Source: an uncultured delta proteobacterium (GTDB lineage Bacteria; Desulfobacterota; Binatia; Binatales; Binataceae). Taken from it: a stretch of 64,000 nucleotides of DNA. Both the position numbers and the translations under genes were made by a program. This document shows positions 4,791 through 13,661 of the stretch, piece by piece (the first letter of the stretch is position 1; each line of letters begins with the position of its first letter). The notes under the pieces were generated by a model that was not told the origin of the DNA, did not search any database, and saw only the letters and a list, made by a program, of their open reading frames with translations. Location of the stretch: NCBI GenBank assembly GCA_963749215.1, contig CAVVMA010000015.1, positions 277,915-341,914 of the forward strand. Reading direction: 5' to 3'.

Positions 4791-4975
4791 CATGCGGGCG
4801 CTGTCCGCGCGGATCGATGAAATGATAGCGGACCATTTTTGGTCCACATAGAAAGATTCGCTTTTCGCTTATGGATTATGTAGCAATCGGAACCAATTGA
4901 TTCCGATCGAGTCGTTTCACGCCTCGCGCGCGATCTCGAAAACTGCCGTATGGCTGCGATTTCACGTTCGCGAGC

Positions 4976-4992
4976 TTGGCACGGTGCCTGCA
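4976..4992 (+). promoter_or_regulatory. Sigma54 (-24/-12) promoter motif for the oxidase operon
   Basis: TTGGCACGGTGCCTGCA, GG-N10-GC, about 40 nt upstream of the coxB GTG. Confidence 0.7.
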
Positions 4993-5031
4993 CAGCAGTG
5001 CACGCCCAATTTGGGAGGTAAGGAAGTAGAA

Positions 5032-5745
5032 GTGATAACGGGATGGTTTCCGCAGAACGTGTCTACGTTCGGCGGAGATATTGACTGGGTTTTCCGTCTG
5101 ATCCTTTACGTCGTCGGAGCATGGTTCATTCTTGCCGAAGGGACGCTGCTTTATTTCGTGCTGCGCTATCGGCGCAAGAGTGGTCGATCCGCGTCCTTCA
5201 ATAACGGCGAAACGTGGCGTGAGTTGGCCTGGATTTTGATTCCGGCGCTCACCGTCCTGGTTCTCGATCTCGGCATCGATGTAACAGGCGGCGCGGCTTG
5301 GGACAAGGTCAAAGGAGGGCCGCCGCCTGCCACTGTCGAGATCCAAGTCAAGGCGAAGCAGTTCAATTGGGAATTCACCTACGCTGGTCCGGACGGCAAA
5401 TTCGGCACTGCCGACGACATTACGCAGGAAAATGAGCTGCACGTTCCCGTCGGCCAGGTCGTGCGGTTGACGCTCACCTCAGAGGACGTGATTCACAGCT
5501 TCTTCGTGCCCAACCTGCGCCTGAAGCAGGATGTCGTACCCGGCAGAACGATACCCGCGTGGTTCGAGGCCACCAAGTCCGGCAGCTATCCGATCGCGTG
5601 CACCGAGTTGTGTGGTTTCGGCCATTACTCAATGGCCGGCACGTTAGTCGTGCAGAGCGCGCACGACTATGCGCAGTGGCTAAAGGAACGTTCCCCTCAA
5701 TCGACGGCCAGCGCCGATACCGATCGCGCGCGAAAGGCGAATTGA
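5032..5745 (+). CDS. coxB: Cytochrome c oxidase subunit II
   Basis: Two TM helices; CuA ligands DVIHSFFVP and CTELCGFGHYSM; GTG start after GGAGG/AAGGA. Confidence 0.93.
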   Translation: MITGWFPQNVSTFGGDIDWVFRLILYVVGAWFILAEGTLLYFVLRYRRKSGRSASFNNGETWRELAWILIPALTVLVLDLGIDVTGGAAWDKVKGGPPPATVEIQVKAKQFNWEFTYAGPDGKFGTADDITQENELHVPVGQVVRLTLTSEDVIHSFFVPNLRLKQDVVPGRTIPAWFEATKSGSYPIACTELCGFGHYSMAGTLVVQSAHDYAQWLKERSPQSTASADTDRARKAN

Positions 5746-5747
5746 TT

Positions 5748-7481
5748 GTGGCAGCGCAAGTTGGGGCTCAGGGCATTGCCGGATCGCAGATCGAGCCGCA
5801 TCACGAATTGGGATTCCTGCGGCGCTACATTTTCTCCGTCGATCACAAAACGATCGCGAAGCAGTATCTGTCGCTCAGCCTGTTGATGGCGATTGTCGGA
5901 GGCTTGACGGCGTACCTGATCCGATGGCAGCTCGCGTGGCCGGAGACCTCAGTCGCCGGATGGGGCTACGTCGAGCCTGACGCGTACAACGCCATCGTCA
6001 CGATGCACGGCACGATCATGGTGTTCTTCGTCGCGATGCCGATGCTGTTGGGGGCGTTTGGCAACTTCCTGATTCCACTGATGATCGGCGCGCGCGACAT
6101 GGCCTTCCCGCGCCTCAATGCGCTTTCGTTCTGGACGCTGTTCACAGCGTCGATGGTCCTGCTGGCGTCGTTCTTCGTTCCCGGGGGGCCGGCCGCCGCT
6201 GGATGGACCAGCTACGCGCCGCTGTCCGATAACCCGATTTATACCGGCGTCAACTGGGGCATCAATCTCTGGATCATCGCGGTGGCGCTCGAGTTCGCGT
6301 CCTTCCTGATGGGTGGCGTGAACTTTCTGACTACCGCGCTCAACATGCGCGCGCGCGGCATGACGTTGTGGCGGATGCCGCTGATGGTCTGGATGGAACT
6401 GATCGCGTCGGTCGTGTTCCTGCTTTCGGTGGGACCGCTTGTGGCAGGCGCGGTAATGCTGCTGCTTGACCGCACGATCGGGACCGGATTCTTCGCGCCC
6501 GATCGCGGCGGCGATCCGCTGCTATGGCAGCATCTGTTCTGGTTCTTCGGTCATCCCGAAGTCTACGTCGTCGCACTGCCGGGATTCGGCATCATGATGG
6601 AAGTGATGCCGGTCTTCTCCCGCAAGCCGATCTTCGGCTATCGCACGATAGTCAATTCGGTAATTGCCGCGGGCCTGCTGAGCTTCATCGTGTGGGCGCA
6701 TCACATGTTCGTCAGCGGGATGGATCCGCGGCTCGCCACGCCGTTCAGCATCACGACGATACTCATCTCGGTGCCGTTCGCAATCATGGTATTCGGGATG
6801 ATCGCAACGTTGTGGCGCGGCTCGATCAGTCTCAAGACTCCGATGCTGTTCGCCGTGGGCGGTCTGGCGAGTTTCATTTTGGGCGGCGTAACCGGGATTT
6901 TCCTCGGCTCGGCAGCCGTCGATATCTACTTGCACGGAACTTACTTCGTGGTGGCGCACTTCCATTACACACTTTTCCCGACCGTCTTCTTCGGCGGGTT
7001 TGCCGGCCTGTACTATTGGTACCCCAAAATGTTCGGCCGGATGATGAACGAGACCCTCGGCAAGATCCACTTCGCACTGACTTTCGTATGCTTCAACGCG
7101 GTCTTCATTCCGCTGTTCGTCACCGGTCTGGCCGGCACTCCGCGAAGAATCTACGAAACGACGGCGTACGACTTCCTCAAGCCGGTACAGCCGTTGCACG
7201 TGGTCGCGACTATCGCGACGATTCTGCTGCTCTTGGGCCAGCTTCCATTTGTCGCTAACTTCGTCGTGTCGATGTTCCGGGGCGAGCGGGCGCCGCAAAA
7301 TCCATGGCAAGCCAACACGCTGGAGTGGCAGACCGATTCGCCGCCGCCGCACGGCAACTTCAGAACTACGCCGGTGGTGTTCCGCGGCCCTTATAACTAC
7401 ACCGTGCCCAAGGCGGCGCGGGATTGGGCGCCGCAGAGCGAGCCCGATCGTGCGACCGAGCTCGCGGCGGCCGGAGTCTGA
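5748..7481 (+). CDS. coxA: Heme-copper oxidase subunit I (A1-type GHPEVY, K-channel altered)
   Basis: TMHG, WFFGHPEVY, WAHHM, VAHFHY and PRR motifs; D-channel SVDHK and Asn residues retained. Confidence 0.95.
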   Translation: MAAQVGAQGIAGSQIEPHHELGFLRRYIFSVDHKTIAKQYLSLSLLMAIVGGLTAYLIRWQLAWPETSVAGWGYVEPDAYNAIVTMHGTIMVFFVAMPMLLGAFGNFLIPLMIGARDMAFPRLNALSFWTLFTASMVLLASFFVPGGPAAAGWTSYAPLSDNPIYTGVNWGINLWIIAVALEFASFLMGGVNFLTTALNMRARGMTLWRMPLMVWMELIASVVFLLSVGPLVAGAVMLLLDRTIGTGFFAPDRGGDPLLWQHLFWFFGHPEVYVVALPGFGIMMEVMPVFSRKPIFGYRTIVNSVIAAGLLSFIVWAHHMFVSGMDPRLATPFSITTILISVPFAIMVFGMIATLWRGSISLKTPMLFAVGGLASFILGGVTGIFLGSAAVDIYLHGTYFVVAHFHYTLFPTVFFGGFAGLYYWYPKMFGRMMNETLGKIHFALTFVCFNAVFIPLFVTGLAGTPRRIYETTAYDFLKPVQPLHVVATIATILLLLGQLPFVANFVVSMFRGERAPQNPWQANTLEWQTDSPPPHGNFRTTPVVFRGPYNYTVPKAARDWAPQSEPDRATELAAAGV

Positions 7482-8119
7482 TGATGGCATCGATCGAGCT
7501 TTCGGCAAATCCCGAAGCGGGCTTAGCCTCGGCATACGATCCGCAGTCTGGCGCGTCCGATCGGCTGCTGAGGGGGATGCCGATTGGAAAGATCGCGATC
7601 TGGTGGTTCCTCGCCTCGGAGATCATGATCTTCGGCGGGCTGATTGCATGCTACGTACTGATGCGAATCGCGCACGGCGGATGGGAGGCCGAGGCCGCCC
7701 ACGTCAAATGGCAACTCGGCGCTATCAATACACTGGTGCTGGTGACCAGCAGTCTCACGATGATCCTGGCTCACTACAGCGTCGAGCGCGACGACCGGGG
7801 CGCAGTGAGTAAATACCTTGGCATCACCGTAATACTCGGTCTGGCATTTCTGGGTATCAAAACGTTCGAATACTGGTCCGATCTGAAGGAAGGCTTCACG
7901 CCGCTGTCCGGCATGTTCTGGTCCTTCTACTACATGATGACCGGGCTACATGCCATCCATGTGACCGCCGGGATCGTAATCAATGCCTGGTTGTTCGCGA
8001 TGGCTCGCCGGGGCACGCTCTGGCCACGCCTCCAGCAGCGAGTCGAGTTCGCGGGTCTCTATTGGCATTTCGTGGACGTGGTATGGATTTTCCTGTTTCC
8101 GCTCCTCTATCTGACCTAA
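7481..8119 (+). CDS. Cytochrome c oxidase subunit III family
   Basis: WFLASEIMIFGG, TGLHAIHV, GLYWHFVDVVWIFLFPLLY; ATG overlaps the coxA stop. Confidence 0.92.
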   Translation: MMASIELSANPEAGLASAYDPQSGASDRLLRGMPIGKIAIWWFLASEIMIFGGLIACYVLMRIAHGGWEAEAAHVKWQLGAINTLVLVTSSLTMILAHYSVERDDRGAVSKYLGITVILGLAFLGIKTFEYWSDLKEGFTPLSGMFWSFYYMMTGLHAIHVTAGIVINAWLFAMARRGTLWPRLQQRVEFAGLYWHFVDVVWIFLFPLLYLT

Positions 8120-8148
8120 GGCGGGTGGCATACCGAGGCAGCCGGCAA

Positions 8149-8430
8149 ATGGAAAGTGTCGAACAAGGACGCGCTGAGTATGTCAGAGTATGGTTCTGGC
8201 TGGTAGCGCTGTTGGCCGCGGGACTTGTGGTGATGGCGTTGCCGGTTCCGAAGCTCGCGGCGTTGACGCTCATTTTCAGCATCGCGACGATCAAAGCCGG
8301 GCTGGTGATCCGGAACTACATGCACCTCAAGTACGAAAATCTGTTCGTCATCGCGCTCGCGCTCGTGCCCGTGCTTTTATTCATCGGTCTTGCAATTGCG
8401 CTCATACCCGACATCGCCATGCATCACTGA
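8149..8430 (+). CDS. Cytochrome c oxidase subunit IV family
   Basis: Three TM helices, KAGLVIRNYMHLKYE motif. Confidence 0.85.
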   Translation: MESVEQGRAEYVRVWFWLVALLAAGLVVMALPVPKLAALTLIFSIATIKAGLVIRNYMHLKYENLFVIALALVPVLLFIGLAIALIPDIAMHH

Positions 8431-9025
8431 GCCGCTGGCCGGCGCGGCGGCGGGAGCCGCTGGCGCGGCCGGCCAGGCGCTTCCAAACGCTCTGATCGCC
8501 GTGCTTATTCTGATCGGCGCGGAAGTGATGTTCTTCGCCGGTCTGATCATGGCGTTCATGATTCTCCGGGCCGGAAGCTTTTCCTGGCCGCCACCGGGCC
8601 AGCCGCGGCTGCCGATTGCGATCACCGGCATCAATACCTTGGTTCTCCTCGCGAGTGGCTGGGCAGTCTATCGCGCGGTCAAATCGACGAAGCAACGACG
8701 TTTGGAAAATGCCCCGCGGTGGATCGGCACGGCGATTCTGCTCGGCCTCACGTTCCTTACGATCCAGAGCGTGGAATGGATTCGGCTGCTCGCGTTCGGC
8801 TTGCGCGCGTCGAGAAGCCTCTATGGCGCCACGTTTTACACTGCGATCGGCGCCCATGCTGTTCATGTAGCCGGCGGATTGATCGCCCTCGCCTTTGTAT
8901 TCTACAAGAGCGTGAGCCGAGGCTTCGACGCGAAAACTCATAGCCTGCTGGAAGCGTGCGCGTTCTTCTGGCTCTTCGTCGTCGCGGTATGGCCGGTGCT
9001 CTATGTATTCCTTTATCTCACGTAG
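8390..9025 (+). CDS. Second subunit III-like protein (start uncertain)
   Basis: EVMFFAGL, WPPPGQPRLP, NTLVLLAS, GAHAVHV, FWLFVVAVWP. Confidence 0.85.
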   Translation: MQLRSYPTSPCITEPLAGAAAGAAGAAGQALPNALIAVLILIGAEVMFFAGLIMAFMILRAGSFSWPPPGQPRLPIAITGINTLVLLASGWAVYRAVKSTKQRRLENAPRWIGTAILLGLTFLTIQSVEWIRLLAFGLRASRSLYGATFYTAIGAHAVHVAGGLIALAFVFYKSVSRGFDAKTHSLLEACAFFWLFVVAVWPVLYVFLYLT

Positions 9026-9263
9026 CGCGATCGCAACCGCTGTGACTGCGATCGCGATGTTCCCCGCGACCGCGCTCGCGTGCTCAGCCTGCCTGGCTTC
9101 GTCGCAGGCGGGAGTACTTAGAGCATTCTACTTGAGTGCGGGTGTTTTGACCGTCCTGCCGTTCATCATTATCGGCGCGATCATTTTCTCAATCACGCGA
9201 ATCAGCAGACGGGGTACTACTCATTCACGCGATGGCTCGCCAAGTCACTCACGCAGACGCTAG
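9003..9263 (+). CDS. Small membrane protein with signal peptide, CxxC and a TM helix at the end of the cox operon
   Basis: ALACSAC after a signal-like segment, then one hydrophobic helix; overlaps the upstream gene. Confidence 0.6.
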   Translation: MYSFISRSAIATAVTAIAMFPATALACSACLASSQAGVLRAFYLSAGVLTVLPFIIIGAIIFSITRISRRGTTHSRDGSPSHSRRR

Positions 9264-9415: not shown

Positions 9416-10726
9416 ATGCACGAAGCTGAATACAGATCGAAACTGATGACGCCGGCTGCCGGAGTAGAGCTTATTCCAGCGCGTGGGACGCTTTCGATGG
9501 GAATGGCGATCAGCGAGCCGCCGGCACTCCTACAGGCACTTGAGGACAGGGTGAAGCGCGGGGGGATCGAAGAGCTTCGAGTCTATTACTCGCATTCGGT
9601 CGCAGCCGCGGCGGCTACCATTCTCAAGTACGAGTACATGAACGTGATCAAGCCATATCCGTTTTTCCCCACCGTGATCGAGCGAATGCTGATCGAACGG
9701 GGCCGGCAGGACAATAGGCGGGTGGTCTTTTATATGCCGGGGAACTTCAGCGCCATGCCGCGCACCCTCGCCGCTATAGGAATCGACGCATTCGTGATGA
9801 TGGCCGCTCCGATGGATAAGGCCGGATTCTTCAGTTGCGGCACCAACGGAGACTATACGATCCCGACTGCGCGCGTTGCGAAAAAGCTGATCGTGGAGGT
9901 GAACCCGAAGATGCCCCGCGTTTTCGGAGACTCGTGCGTCCATATCTCCGAGGTTGACGCGATCGTTGAGAACGAAAGTCCGCTGTTTGCCGTTCCTCCG
10001 CGAGCGGCCACGGAACTCGACGAAAAGATCGGGAAAATTATCGTGGAGATGGTGCCCGATCGGGCCACGCTTCAGATCGGACTTGGCGGAGTACCAAATG
10101 CAGTCTGCAAAGTGCTGGCCAACCACAAGGACTTAGGCATTCATACCGAGTTGATGATGCCCTCGCTCGTCGCGCTCATTCGGTCAGGTGCAGTCACAAA
10201 CCGGTTCAAGAACCTCAACAGACACAAGAACGTATTCACTCTCGCCGCCGGCGACGAACCGTTCTACGAGTTCTTGAACGACAATTCGAGCATGGAGCTG
10301 TATGCGGTCGACTATGTCAACGACCCTTACGTGATCGGCCGGAACGATCGAGTGATATCGATCAGTGCTTTCCTGGAAGTCGGCCTTGACGGCGAGGTCA
10401 ACTCCGAAGCCATTGAGGGAAGGCAGTACAGCGCGCCGGGAGGCCAGTTGGATTTCGTTCGGGGGGCGCAGTTGTCCAAAGGTGGAAAGTCAATTCTGGC
10501 TGCATACTCCACCGCCGCGAAAGGATCCGTCTCCCGCATAGTCCCGAAAATTGAAGGGCCGACCACCGATCCACGGGCCGATACTCAATATATTATGACT
10601 GAGTACGGGATGGCTGACATGACCGGCAAATCCACAGCCGAGCGGGCCGAGGCGCTAATCGCCATTGCCCATCCCAGGTTCCGCGACCAGCTTGTCGAGG
10701 GCGCCAGGAAGCTGGGATATCTTTGA
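9416..10726 (+). CDS. Acetyl-CoA hydrolase / 4-hydroxybutyrate CoA-transferase family
   Basis: LQIGLGGVP, LGIHTE, GGQLDFVRGA, TEYG and IAHPRFRDQL motifs. Confidence 0.92.
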   Translation: MHEAEYRSKLMTPAAGVELIPARGTLSMGMAISEPPALLQALEDRVKRGGIEELRVYYSHSVAAAAATILKYEYMNVIKPYPFFPTVIERMLIERGRQDNRRVVFYMPGNFSAMPRTLAAIGIDAFVMMAAPMDKAGFFSCGTNGDYTIPTARVAKKLIVEVNPKMPRVFGDSCVHISEVDAIVENESPLFAVPPRAATELDEKIGKIIVEMVPDRATLQIGLGGVPNAVCKVLANHKDLGIHTELMMPSLVALIRSGAVTNRFKNLNRHKNVFTLAAGDEPFYEFLNDNSSMELYAVDYVNDPYVIGRNDRVISISAFLEVGLDGEVNSEAIEGRQYSAPGGQLDFVRGAQLSKGGKSILAAYSTAAKGSVSRIVPKIEGPTTDPRADTQYIMTEYGMADMTGKSTAERAEALIAIAHPRFRDQLVEGARKLGYL

Positions 10727-11928
10727 GCATGCGAACCGACGCTTGCGAACGGGAGTCCATTTTGAAGCCTATGGGTCAGTCTTTAACCTGCGATTGGGCG
10801 GGCAGCGCCCAGAACAATGAAAGCACTATTCATCAGCTTTCGCCGTACATTGGAAAACTTAAGTCATCCATGGCCGCGTCTCTCATTTCGCAGTTCACGA
10901 AGCGCGGCGAACTTGTTTACGACCCCTTCTCCGGATCCGGTACCGTCGCCTTGGAGGCCTGGTTCGCGGGCCGACATGTCGTAGCCAACGATCTCAATCC
11001 ATATGCCAGTCTGCTCACGCGAGCAAAGCTTTTTCCGTACCGCTCAGTTGAGGATGCCCTGCGCGACATCGAGCGGCTCAGCCTCGAAGCGGTGAAGTTG
11101 CAAGGCCGCTTCGATCTTCGGAAAGTCCCATCTTGGGTGCGGAGGTTCTTTCATCCCGATACTTTGCGTGAGACGCTTTCTTGGGCGAGTATTCTTGGGA
11201 AGCGACGCCGTTGGTTCTTGCTCGCATCGCTGCTCGGGATCTTGCACCATCAGCGTCCCGGTTTTTTGTCCTTTCCAAGTAGCCATACAGTTCCGTACTT
11301 GCGTGCGAAGAAGTTTCCTCGCGCTCGTTTCCCTGAAATGTATGAGTATCGCTCTCTGCGGGACCGTCTAGAGGCCAAAATAGAACGCGCATTTCGGCGG
11401 GTGCCGGAGTTGGATTTCAACATCAGACGAACCAGTTTCTGTAAGAGCGCAAACAACGTCGTTCTGTCGGCACCCGTCGATACCATAATTACAAGCCCTC
11501 CGTACATGCGACAATTGGACTACGGAAGAGACAATCGGTTGCGTCTCTGGTTCTTGGACGTCCAGGACTGGCGCTCTTTGGATGAGCTTGTTTCGCCCAG
11601 TGAAGATTCGTTTTTGAGCCTGATGCGTCGCTGCTTTACCCTCTGGAAAGCGGTCCTCAAACCTTCGCACTGCTGTGTCCTTATAATTGGGGATGCGTGC
11701 AGTCGCAATGACCGAGGAAACCTGCCTGACGTGGTCGCGCGCATCGCCACAGACGAGATTGGCGGATATTCGCGAGTGTGTGAGTATACGGATGCCATTC
11801 CGAATGAGAGGCGCGTTCGCCGTGGAATCGTTGGCAGCGTCTCCGAGACAATCGTAGTCCTTCGGAACACTGGCGTCTCAAGCTCATGGAGAGCATCCCG
11901 CGGGAGGACACATGCAACAGCTCTTTAA
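10723..11928 (+). CDS. Amino-DNA methyltransferase, probably N4-cytosine, alpha motif order
   Basis: N-terminal SAM-binding YDPFSGSGT and C-terminal catalytic ITSPPY. Confidence 0.85.
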   Translation: MSMRTDACERESILKPMGQSLTCDWAGSAQNNESTIHQLSPYIGKLKSSMAASLISQFTKRGELVYDPFSGSGTVALEAWFAGRHVVANDLNPYASLLTRAKLFPYRSVEDALRDIERLSLEAVKLQGRFDLRKVPSWVRRFFHPDTLRETLSWASILGKRRRWFLLASLLGILHHQRPGFLSFPSSHTVPYLRAKKFPRARFPEMYEYRSLRDRLEAKIERAFRRVPELDFNIRRTSFCKSANNVVLSAPVDTIITSPPYMRQLDYGRDNRLRLWFLDVQDWRSLDELVSPSEDSFLSLMRRCFTLWKAVLKPSHCCVLIIGDACSRNDRGNLPDVVARIATDEIGGYSRVCEYTDAIPNERRVRRGIVGSVSETIVVLRNTGVSSSWRASRGRTHATAL

Positions 11929-12997
11929 CACGCGAAACTACAGCATCCGTGACTTTGAGGAGTGGAACGAGCGAGGCGAACTTGTACTCGCTCCAAAATT
12001 CCAGCGCCGAGATTTCTGGAGCGACAAAGCACGTTCCTACCTTATCGACACCATCGTTCGGGGAAAGCCAATTCCCAAAATCTACATGCGCCAAGAGGTC
12101 AATCCCAAGACTCGCCGCGCGAGGCGCGAGATGGTGGATGGTCAGCAGAGGCTTCGCAGCGTGCTGGACTTTCTCAAGGATGGGTTCAAGATCAGCAAAG
12201 CTCATCACGAGGACTTCGGGGGTAAGTACTTCACCGGTTTGGACCAACACACGCAGCGCGACATTCTGAAGTACGAGTTTGTCGTCGATCTTCTTCAGGA
12301 TCTGCCCGACAATGAAGTCTACGACGTGTTTGCTCGAATAAACACTTACTCCGAGAAGCTGAAACCACAAGAATTGCGGAACGCGAAGTGGTTCGGTGAA
12401 TTCAAATCTGCGGTTTATCTTCTGTCTAAAGAATATGTGACGTTTTTTGCAACCAATGAAACCTTTTCGCCGAAATCAATTCTGCGCATGGCGGAGGCGG
12501 AGTTTATATCGCAGCTTCTCCTAGCTATCCATGAAGGGATCCGAGAGGGACAAAAGAGTGTTATCGACAATGCTTATAAGAAATACGATGACGACTTTCC
12601 ACGTCGTCGGCTTCATGAGAGGCGATTCCGCGAGACGATGGATACCATCGGAGGGATCGTCGGTGCAGACTTACCGCAACTGGAATTCCGTGCGACCAGA
12701 CTGTTCTACCCGCTATTCTGCGCAATGTTTCATGTGAAATTCGGTCTGCCAAGACTCCGCGCGCCAAGGGCTACCCTTAGGATCGCTGATTATCCGAAAC
12801 TGAAGAGAGTCTTAGAAAAGACCAGCGCACTGATTGATGAGATCAAAGCAGCCGAGGGTAGCACGAACGCTGTCGAGCTGTCGATCGAGGACCGAAGATT
12901 CTATGACGCCTACAATGAGCATTGGGTGCATGCAGACAAGAGAAGTGTCCTAACAGAGTATCTTTGCAAGAACTTCGTGAAGGCGCTGCGAGAATAA
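11912..12997 (+). CDS. DUF262 (ParB/Srx-like, GmrS-type) domain protein
   Basis: FQRR..W, YLIDTI..G.PIP, VDGQQRL and FARIN motifs; no C-terminal HNH (DUF1524). Confidence 0.9.
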   Translation: MQQLFNTRNYSIRDFEEWNERGELVLAPKFQRRDFWSDKARSYLIDTIVRGKPIPKIYMRQEVNPKTRRARREMVDGQQRLRSVLDFLKDGFKISKAHHEDFGGKYFTGLDQHTQRDILKYEFVVDLLQDLPDNEVYDVFARINTYSEKLKPQELRNAKWFGEFKSAVYLLSKEYVTFFATNETFSPKSILRMAEAEFISQLLLAIHEGIREGQKSVIDNAYKKYDDDFPRRRLHERRFRETMDTIGGIVGADLPQLEFRATRLFYPLFCAMFHVKFGLPRLRAPRATLRIADYPKLKRVLEKTSALIDEIKAAEGSTNAVELSIEDRRFYDAYNEHWVHADKRSVLTEYLCKNFVKALRE

Positions 12998-13001
12998 ACC
13001 G

Positions 13002-13661
13002 ATGGCGCAGCGCAGGCTACGTACCGTCTTGGAGGACTGCTTGCGGCGACTGGAAGAATCCAGGCGGCTCGCGGATGACGCCTATAGGTGGTCTTTGCCG
13101 GGAGCTTCAGGAATTGGCCCACGGATCAGTGTGAAAAGACGTGATTCTATGATGGAGCTGGCATTTCTGCGCACGTTCCTCGCTTGGGAATCTTTCCTGG
13201 AGGAGTCCTTCATTCTCTATCTCTCGGGGCAAAAGCCCCCTCGCGGTCGGCCCCCGGTTCGATACGCTTTCCCTCCTAACCACAAAGCGGCGATAGAATG
13301 GTTCGTTCCCGAATCGGGGCGCCCCAATTACGCACGATGGACCGTCGCGGGAGAGGTTACGACAAGAGCGGAGCGCGTTTTCCGAGCCGGGCGCCCATTC
13401 GCGGCTGTCCTCAGAGGAGGCCAAAACGTGCTGGACAAGTGTCGGACTATCAGGAATGCCATCGCGCATGAATCCGAGAGTTCTCGGACCAAGTTCGAGA
13501 CGCTGGCACGCGCCGAATTGGTCCCTTTACCTCTACCTCCGAGGTTGACCGTCGGAACCTTTCTTACTACGACTGTGCCAGCGTCCAGTCCACCTGTCTC
13601 ATTTCTGGACCACTACGTTGACAAAATCGACATTTTGGCGAAGCAGATCGTACGCTCTTGA
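13002..13661 (+). CDS. HEPN-domain protein (putative RNase)
   Basis: Helical protein with AWESFLEE and the Rx4H motif RNAIAH. Confidence 0.75.
   Translation: MAQRRLRTVLEDCLRRLEESRRLADDAYRWSLPGASGIGPRISVKRRDSMMELAFLRTFLAWESFLEESFILYLSGQKPPRGRPPVRYAFPPNHKAAIEWFVPESGRPNYARWTVAGEVTTRAERVFRAGRPFAAVLRGGQNVLDKCRTIRNAIAHESESSRTKFETLARAELVPLPLPPRLTVGTFLTTTVPASSPPVSFLDHYVDKIDILAKQIVRS

Follow-up and report, generated by a model that had tools for sequence, protein, structure and literature searches.

An A1-type oxidase subunit I of Binatia with a hydrophobic K-channel and an additional glutamate in the D-channel

How does a heme-copper oxidase of the A family deliver protons to its active site when the positions that define one of its two proton channels are all hydrophobic? 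The question is raised by the gene at positions 5748-7481 (plus strand) of the window analysed here, by which we mean the whole 64,000-nucleotide stretch taken from an uncultured delta proteobacterium of the Binataceae (assembly GCA_963749215.1, contig CAVVMA010000015.1, forward-strand positions 277,915 to 341,914). The textbook description of A-type oxidases is a two-channel scheme, with a D-channel and a K-channel, and the substitution K362M is their classic dead mutant; the gene in question encodes a subunit I in which a methionine stands at precisely this position. The answer that we favour, with moderate confidence, is that the gene belongs to a working, CuA-dependent O2 reductase in which the K-path is closed and a remodelled D-path is the only supply of protons. 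The features of subunit I on which the argument turns are given below; the clade referred to is that of its close homologues.

5748-7481, plus strand: subunit I (CtaD/CoxA-like) of the A family, A1-type (helix VI Glu), without the K-channel residues, from translation, profiles and alignment
6291-6305, plus strand: helix IV segment E182-F183-A-S-F186 of the upper D-channel, with S197 replaced by Glu (100% of the clade), G198 by Phe and S201 by Phe
6549-6566, plus strand: GHPEVY, with the CuB ligand His269, the D-channel Glu271 (E286) and the cross-link Tyr273 (Y288), from translation
6597-6599, plus strand: M284, at the position of K-channel Ser299; Leu or Met in the clade, Ser in 16 of 16 sister rows
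6765-6794, plus strand: helix VIII segment ISVPFAIMVF (residues 340-349), with F344 at the T359 position and M347 at the K362 position
6798-6800, plus strand: M351, at the W366 position, from alignments
6933-6941, plus strand: HGT (residues 396-398) at the Mg/Mn-site position, canonically HDT, from translation

The gene translates without a stop into a protein of 577 residues, P0001, which matches the PF00115 COX1 profile at 490.8 bits (cut-off 34.8) and scores 641.2 bits against the equivalog TIGR02891 CtaD_CoxA, slightly below the cut-off of 670.75. An AlphaFold2 model (mean predicted local distance difference score 87.8, predicted template modelling (TM) score 0.89) finds aa3 subunit I structures as its top Foldseek matches, with TM scores of 0.83-0.87. 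Residue numbers of the Rhodobacter sphaeroides enzyme, used throughout, are those that we take to correspond to P0001 by a constant offset of +15, which fits D132, E286, S299, T359, K362, D412 and H419. Profile alignment and phmmer confirm the earlier statement that the six histidines that bind heme a, heme a3 and CuB (H87, H269, H318, H319, H404 and H406) and the cross-linking tyrosine are intact, and the profile alignment also places the arginine pair R466/R467. The GHPEVY motif is kept in 121 of 121 sequences, the query included. P0001 is assigned to the A family, as one of its K-less variants, on the grounds of homology and fold; the B family is marked by the lack of a D-channel and by an alternative K-channel of Thr, Ser and Tyr residues, whereas P0001 has a D-channel, and the B-type paralogue of the same genome (HPIVY) is a separate gene.

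Comparison with the canonical A1 aa3 subunit I (CtaD of R. sphaeroides and Paracoccus denitrificans) shows both common and altered features. The two share the fold and 40-43% sequence identity (the best sequence match in the PDB is an actinobacterial CtaD), together with the six histidines, the HPEVY tyrosine, E286, the D-channel entry, a subunit II with a CuA site and genes for subunits III and IV. In contrast, P0001 has hydrophobic residues in place of S299, T359, K362 and W366, glycine in place of D412, glutamate in place of S197, phenylalanine in place of both G198 and S201, and phenylalanine in place of H472.

The K-channel substitutions are S299 to Met, T359 to Phe, K362 to Met and W366 to Met; PMC3084760 (table 2) gives the A-family K-channel of P. 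denitrificans as Lys354, Thr351 and Ser291. In a phmmer alignment with the solved Mycobacterium smegmatis CtaD (6adq_F) helix VIII runs without a gap, 'liavPtgiKff' pairing with 'lisvPfaiMvf', so that the Thr-to-Phe and Lys-to-Met changes proposed for this helix in the first-pass annotation stand. To find residues peculiar to the clade, 130 of its sequences were compared with 16 from sisters and 87 from other K-bearing enzymes; a position qualified if at least 85% of the clade shared its residue and the residue was rare outside. Of the 32 positions returned, none is a lysine or arginine, and this, with the gapless alignment, rules out a lysine shifted into the channel. The clade-specific channel positions are L/M284 (S299), F344 (T359), M351 (W366) and S341 (A356; Ser in 100%), and G397 (D412) and F457 (H472) are other clade-specific changes. 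The only new ionisable residues in the clade are E182 and H484, both away from the K-channel region.

At the Mg site, D412 is Gly397 in P0001, and the change from HDT to HGT is likewise as first described. Across the query and its 120 homologues the triplet is HGT in 105, HDT in 12, HDS in three and HAT in one, and the basal members of the clade (L016, L017, L018, P0094 and P0107) retain HD(T/S), from which it follows that D412G is a later change within the clade. A strict tie between loss of the Mg-site aspartate and loss of the lysine is ruled out, as basal K-less members keep HDT and a K-bearing sister, L031, has HGT.

The D-channel had been described as intact, and this is true of its entry and of E286 but not of its upper part. 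The entry residues D117 (D132), N106 (N121), N124 (N139) and N192 (N207) are kept, as are S127, S185 and E271 (E286). Just below E286, however, the channel is remodelled by S197E, G198F and S201F; according to PMC10341450, S197, S200 and S201 are residues lining the D-channel, and channel roles are also listed for N207, A356, S365, W366 and E101 of subunit II. The new glutamate, E182, is present in 100% of the clade and of a sister group with Ile at position 359, and is nearly absent elsewhere. This Ile-359 subgroup (P0122, L019 and L077, the last from a metagenome-assembled genome (MAG) labelled Bdellovibrionaceae) shares the whole E182/F183/F186 set. One of its members, L019 (L048:6349-8082, genome G039), has GHPGVY, and so is without E286, and PISEM on helix VIII, and still keeps the helix IV glutamate E182; this combination comes from a single genome.

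Are these substitutions a property of a lineage or of one assembly? The homologue set was drawn from a protein collection clustered at 90% identity, in which 8000 candidates were scored; the best 120, which are 70-93% identical to P0001, are, where named, labelled as MAGs of Binatia, Binataceae or the old 'Deltaproteobacteria'. Position 359 is Phe in 121 of 121 of these sequences (query included) and position 362 is Ile, Leu or Met, so that PFAI[ILM] on helix VIII does mark a clade among close homologues (at least 70% identity). In 11 studies of soil and peat, public metagenome runs also contain parts of the subunit I gene, and in two of these studies DNA contigs cover helix VIII: 6615-6952 with one difference (X1 record 4, where X1 may be the source sample) and 6758-6927 with none (X7 record 29). 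The homologues with the same helix VIII and the soil and peat contigs rule out an assembly artefact, and with it the concern that the change is unique to this assembly. One peat RNA library adds two mismatch-free contigs on the operon, 5096-5317 and 7117-7255, which give a weak hint of transcription, DNA carry-over being possible. The ratio of nonsynonymous to synonymous substitution rates (dN/dS) against two same-genus orthologues is 0.10 and 0.14 (0.17-0.23 for more distant pairs, for which dS is near saturation), and the gene is under purifying selection.

Phylogenetic trees were built after the trait columns had been removed (FastTree, 143 rows; quick IQ-TREE, 70 rows). Both recover the clade together with the Ile-type at full support, and in both it falls in a large branch that also contains the K-bearing 'SAK' groups of Binatia and Bacteroidota and a further K-less group, the SV[IL] type. 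The quick IQ-TREE puts the Binatia K-bearing paralogues as sister to the clade, with a Shimodaira-Hasegawa-like approximate likelihood ratio of 96, but a firm sister relation was dropped after an approximately unbiased (AU) test, in which a union of the clade with the SV[IL] clade was not rejected (the constrained tree is better by 12.5 log-likelihood units (lnL), p 0.686). In a distant lineage of 11 clusters, a group defined after inspection of the first tree, position 359 is likewise Phe, position 362 is hydrophobic and the Mg site reads (R/H/N)G(T/S); joining this lineage with the P0001 clade is rejected (delta lnL 70.5, p-AU 0.0037). The combination of T359F, hydrophobic 362 and D412G has therefore arisen at least twice independently, and its independent acquisition by a second lineage makes it look adaptive rather than a product of decay.

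The loss of a key catalytic residue in a gene whose canonical paralogue is always present could point to decay, in which case P0001 would be a dying or non-functional copy. This is hardly credible given a dN/dS of 0.10-0.14, the conservation of the ligands over more than 120 cluster representatives, an operon conserved with subunits II, III and IV, the same substitutions reached convergently in another lineage, and RNA-library contigs that match the operon.

A clade member (at least 67% identity) occurs in 12 of 41 related genomes, two of the 12 being fragments, and in three of 401 genomes of an even sample of the GTDB phylum (E at most 1e-240). All of the ten Binatia genomes checked that have a complete K-less gene also hold at least one A-family subunit I with Ser/Thr359 and Lys362, and the K-less enzyme is for this reason an accessory paralogue. 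In the window's own genome the canonical A1 paralogue has VPSAIKTF on helix VIII and HDT at the Mg site, and is 55% identical to P0001. Such Binatia paralogues (VPSAIKTF, HDT; 52-57% identity) are the nearest K-bearing relatives; unlike P0001, they retain S299, S359, K362, W366, D412 and H472 and have Leu, Gly and Ser at 197, 198 and 201. The operon of the canonical paralogue in this genome is alike in its pair of COX3-like genes, its COX4 gene and its gene for a small CxxC protein, but includes a heme O synthase as well.

The loss of Lys362 itself is neither rare nor new, contrary to what the first-pass annotation had implied. In a sample of clusters at 50% identity, made up of the 150 best representatives and so biased towards the query, 148 have a residue in the K362 column, which is Lys in 89 and something else in 59 (Q 17, I 13, L 12, M 4, V 3, A 3, H 2, E 2 and one each of T, G and F). 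Among 80 named loci from species genomes the lysine is missing in 35, comprising one Binataceae MAG of the P0001 clade, one Ile-type and 33 of the SV[IL] type, whose taxa are Verrucomicrobiota, Acidobacteriota, Planctomycetota, Omnitrophota and Ignavibacteriota (loci L066-L104 and L116). The cultured Rubritalea marina DSM 17716 has an SV[IL] K-less enzyme (L144) as the only A-family subunit I found, accompanied by a cbb3-like CcoN (L145, by BLASTP) and one weak heme-copper oxidase match. The SV[IL] enzymes, at 42-51% identity, resemble P0001 in the changes of K362 to Ile, Leu or Val, S299 to Ala or Gly, W366 to Leu or Met and H472 to Phe or Leu, and in keeping the D-channel and E286; they differ in having Ser359, an HDT Mg site and Leu, Ile and Ser at 197, 198 and 201, and hence are without the extra glutamate. 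In a separate lineage of fused proteins of about 840 residues (P0159, P0162, P0165, P0179, P0180 and others), the K362 position is Gln, G198 and N207 are both replaced by Glu, and N121 by a hydrophobic residue; both of its channels appear remodelled.

Degli Esposti et al. (bioRxiv 10.1101/2020.03.01.968255) describe K-less A-family COX1 proteins in acidophilic Fe2+-oxidisers and non-acidophilic relatives, with the lysine replaced by, for example, isoleucine, the entry glutamate of COX2 substituted and the D-channel conserved; these are A2-type enzymes, are called rare, and are read by the authors as D-channel-only enzymes. About seven independent K-channel losses in archaeal family A oxidases are reported in PMC8239418 (Front Microbiol 2021). 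Compared by description, the enzymes of the Fe2+-oxidisers share with P0001 a hydrophobic replacement of the helix VIII lysine and a retained D-channel, but they are A2-type, with no helix VI glutamate, whereas the P0001 clade is A1-type, with E286 and the extra Glu197; the taxa differ too, Fe2+-oxidisers and their relatives as against soil and peat Binatia. Searches of the open literature, a scope that leaves aside subscription journals and the Degli Esposti supplements, turned up no account of a K-less clade in Binatia or of A1-type, and none of the helix IV glutamate. What is new here is an A1-type K-less lineage of Binatia with an extra D-channel glutamate and a recurrent F359/G412 pattern; K loss as such is published and widespread.

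The remaining evidence on the channels comes from the operon, which spans about 5032-9263 on the plus strand and has, besides subunit I, the following genes.

5032-5745, plus strand: subunit II (CoxB-like) with a CuA site, within open reading frame (ORF) 4897-5745; PF00116 COX2 61.6 bits, PF02790
7481-8119, plus strand: subunit III-like; PF00510 COX3 74.7 bits; its ATG overlaps the subunit I stop, the start being taken from the ORF translation
8149-8430, plus strand: small subunit IV-like protein, probable start 8149 (ORF 8062-8430); PF03626 COX4_pro 34.9 bits
8390-9025, plus strand: second subunit III-like protein (ORF bounds, start uncertain); PF00510 COX3 84.5 bits
9003-9263, plus strand: small membrane protein with CxxC after a signal-like N-terminus, the last gene of the operon; no Pfam match

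The probable GTG start of subunit II at 5032 is set by homologues that begin VI(A/T)GW, and its CuA motif reads H...CTELCGFGHYSM, after the pattern H...CxExCGxxHxxM. Homologues of the subunit IV-like protein (92-104 residues) lie at the equivalent spot in L041, L043, L044, L046 and L047. The second COX3-like gene recurs in L044, L046, L047 and the canonical oxidase operon on contig C10 of the same genome, and small ORFs similar to the last gene end the operon in L039, L040, L044, L047 and the C10 operon (C10:69996-70295). The C10 operon has a matching accessory set plus a heme O synthase; because it also has two COX3 genes, their duplication is not special to the K-less enzyme.

It is the K-channel-entry glutamate of subunit II that differs between the two kinds of locus. 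The residue is Glu in 14 of 14 sister loci; in the ten F-type loci for which it was recovered (the subunit II of L018 was unmatched) it is Glu in six and Gln in four, and Glu in the window. This variation fits a relaxed constraint on a closed K-channel. A rival possibility is that the enzyme reduces O2 and still has another proton route close to the former K-channel, one that runs by Y273, T337 and S341 from an entry unrecognisable from sequence, much as B- and C-family enzymes have alternative K-channels. Those families do use K-analogue channels without a lysine, according to PMC3084760; the clade gains S341 (100%) on the channel face at the A356 position, which is K-channel-defining according to PMC10341450; and the subunit II glutamate is still present in the window. 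We nevertheless consider such a route unlikely: the lower face of helix VIII is uniformly hydrophobic (F344, M347 and M351, with M/L284 on helix VI), the subunit II glutamate drifts to Gln in four of the ten loci, and the K-channel region has gained no ionisable residue, E182 and H484 lying elsewhere.

We return, then, to the reading in which the D-path alone supplies the enzyme. The operon product would be an aa3-like cytochrome c:O2 oxidoreductase that works beside the canonical A1 oxidase. Its K-pathway would be shut by hydrophobic side chains (S299 to Met or Leu, T359 to Phe, K362 to Ile, Leu or Met, and W366 to Met), with the entry glutamate of subunit II under relaxed constraint; given both, the D-pathway would be the only way in for substrate protons and for any that are pumped. 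One turn below E286 that pathway appears to have acquired another carboxylate (S197 to Glu), flanked by two new phenylalanines, and the clade-invariant Glu182 is the best candidate for compensating the lost K-path. From comparison of sequences we infer O2 as the substrate, delivery of protons by the D-path alone and a compensating role of Glu182. In support are the redox ligands, Tyr273, E271, the D-channel entry and the CuA site, all of them intact, and the occurrence of K-less A-family enzymes in aerobes. A D-channel-only oxidase, which was one of the options first raised for this gene, is the most economical reading; among the other options then raised, a different substrate (H2O2 or NO) is less probable, and NO is unlikely.

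Three points weigh against this interpretation. The single K362M mutation of R. sphaeroides abolishes oxidase turnover while peroxidase activity stays, as first cited for this gene and as PMC7601700 bears out; since that change alone is enough, O2 reduction without a K-path requires compensation. A paralogue need not do the standard job, given that ten of ten K-less Binatia genomes keep a K-bearing A-type enzyme. And helix VIII lies outside the two RNA-library contigs.

The first of these points leads to a bolder form of the proposal, in which the helix IV glutamate (S197E), lying near E286, would let the D-pathway supply the reductive-phase protons that normally need Lys362, making this a true single-channel A-type oxidase. 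We put this forward tentatively, as a possibility that may well prove wrong. It also leads to a rival. PMC7601700 reports that K362M keeps its peroxidase activity, and that protons of the peroxidase phase come through the D-channel only. The enzyme could on this basis be a specialist in peroxide reduction, acting as a membrane-bound cytochrome c peroxidase that runs the 'peroxidase half' of the cycle on the D-channel alone; under stress or at low oxygen it would scavenge H2O2 or use it to conserve energy. The pattern of a kept D-channel and a lost K-channel would suit such an enzyme, as would the canonical oxidase that is always alongside in the genomes checked.

The neighbourhood also has a place in this argument. 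In this genome the operon's neighbours encode a hemerythrin-domain protein and PRPP-synthetase-like, NMD3-like, acetyl-CoA hydrolase/transferase, AAA_33 kinase-like and thymidine-phosphorylase-like proteins; further upstream lie genes for a glucan phosphorylase, CBS proteins, a second F-type ATP synthase, cytochrome c, DUF2267, Hsp20 and a B-family oxidase, and same-genus relatives add a universal stress protein (USP), acetate kinase and a sigma-54 activator. The ensemble resembles stress and hypoxia islands in a general way. The placement in a low-oxygen cluster that had been suggested can be upheld as a stress- or dormancy-type gene set in this genus (Hsp20, USP, CBS, DUF2267, hemerythrin, the B-family oxidase and the second ATP synthase) but not as a feature of the clade, as the flanking genes differ in its other genera. 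A link to the lxa locus of Burkholderia cenocepacia was considered and rejected, since the paper on that locus names USPs, alpha-crystallin, acetate kinase and cytochromes and the resemblance is generic only; thymidine phosphorylase, hemerythrin and acetyl-CoA hydrolase do not occur in its text.

Stress-type neighbours in this genus (Hsp20, USP, CBS, hemerythrin) would be in keeping with a peroxide reductase. Yet the flanking genes vary within the clade, and no peroxide-specific feature was identified in the enzyme. Other K-less A-family lineages, moreover, serve as the sole A-type oxidase, as in R. marina. The Fe2+-oxidisers with K-less COX respire O2. It is to such Fe2+-oxidisers that the published K-less COX belong (10.1101/2020.03.01.968255). 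For these reasons a peroxide reductase seems to us quite improbable.

Could the substrate instead be nitric oxide (NO), or something else other than O2? Heme-copper oxidase families have repeatedly switched to NO reduction and A-family enzymes show some nitric oxide reductase (NOR) activity, as PMC11214002 relates; the same text, however, derives new NOR families from B- and C-type ancestors, without the tyrosine cofactor. In P0001 and its homologues the three CuB histidines and the HPEVY tyrosine are invariant (121 of 121), and the NOR motif H-x-Arom-x-E (PMC3084760), which goes with an FeB-type site and its Glu ligand, is absent from P0001. The genome, besides, already has cNOR-like and qNOR-like genes. 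With the CuB-type ligands and tyrosine kept and these genes present, NO as a substrate is unlikely, and an NO reductase or other non-O2 enzyme derived from an A-type oxidase ranks among the most doubtful of explanations.

The window's genome has five further heme-copper oxidase genes in all: the canonical A1 paralogue, a B-type, a cNOR-like, a qNOR-like and a frame-shifted A-type gene. The qNOR-like gene (C3:60754-62391) contains one in-frame TAG and the A-type subunit I gene at C6:74252-75958, at a contig end, is broken across three frames; in either gene the cause could be pseudogenisation or faulty assembly. The B-family-like subunit I (FTGHPIVY; C15:255345-257051) lies about 21 kb upstream of the window, in the same island. 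The second F-type ATP synthase operon is on the minus strand at L147:11789-18357 (C15:269789-276357), about 1.5-8 kb upstream of the window, with the gene order beta, (small genes), a, (c), b/delta, alpha, gamma, which we take to be that of N-type ATPase operons. Also upstream are a molybdopterin oxidoreductase with NuoG-like Fe-S domains beside a NuoF-like flavoprotein (L147:870-5062), which looks like a soluble formate dehydrogenase, and a protein-isoaspartate methyltransferase fused with an erythromycin-esterase domain (L147:6082-8088), a fusion found also in a same-genus relative. In the window itself, 10723-13661 encodes a DNA methylase (N6_N4_Mtase), a GmrSD_N/DUF262 protein and a protein of 219 residues without a Pfam match, placed between the acetyl-CoA hydrolase/transferase and cytochrome c genes; this looks like a small restriction or defence insert.

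What would an A-type oxidase with a single proton channel mean? If the helix IV glutamate does take over from Lys362, nature would already have run the K362M suppressor experiment, and whether A-type enzymes really need two channels could be put to a direct test. L019, with GHPGVY and the helix IV glutamate, would show that this residue can even replace E286, and the convergent lineage with T359F, hydrophobic 362 and D412G would represent a repeatable evolutionary route to D-only oxidases. More generally, K-less lineages offer natural templates for the study of single-channel A-type function, its cost in pumping and the conditions that favour it, whether stress, low O2 or peroxide. The clade is common in Binatia of soil and peat, and so it bears on how respiratory genes in metagenomes are read.

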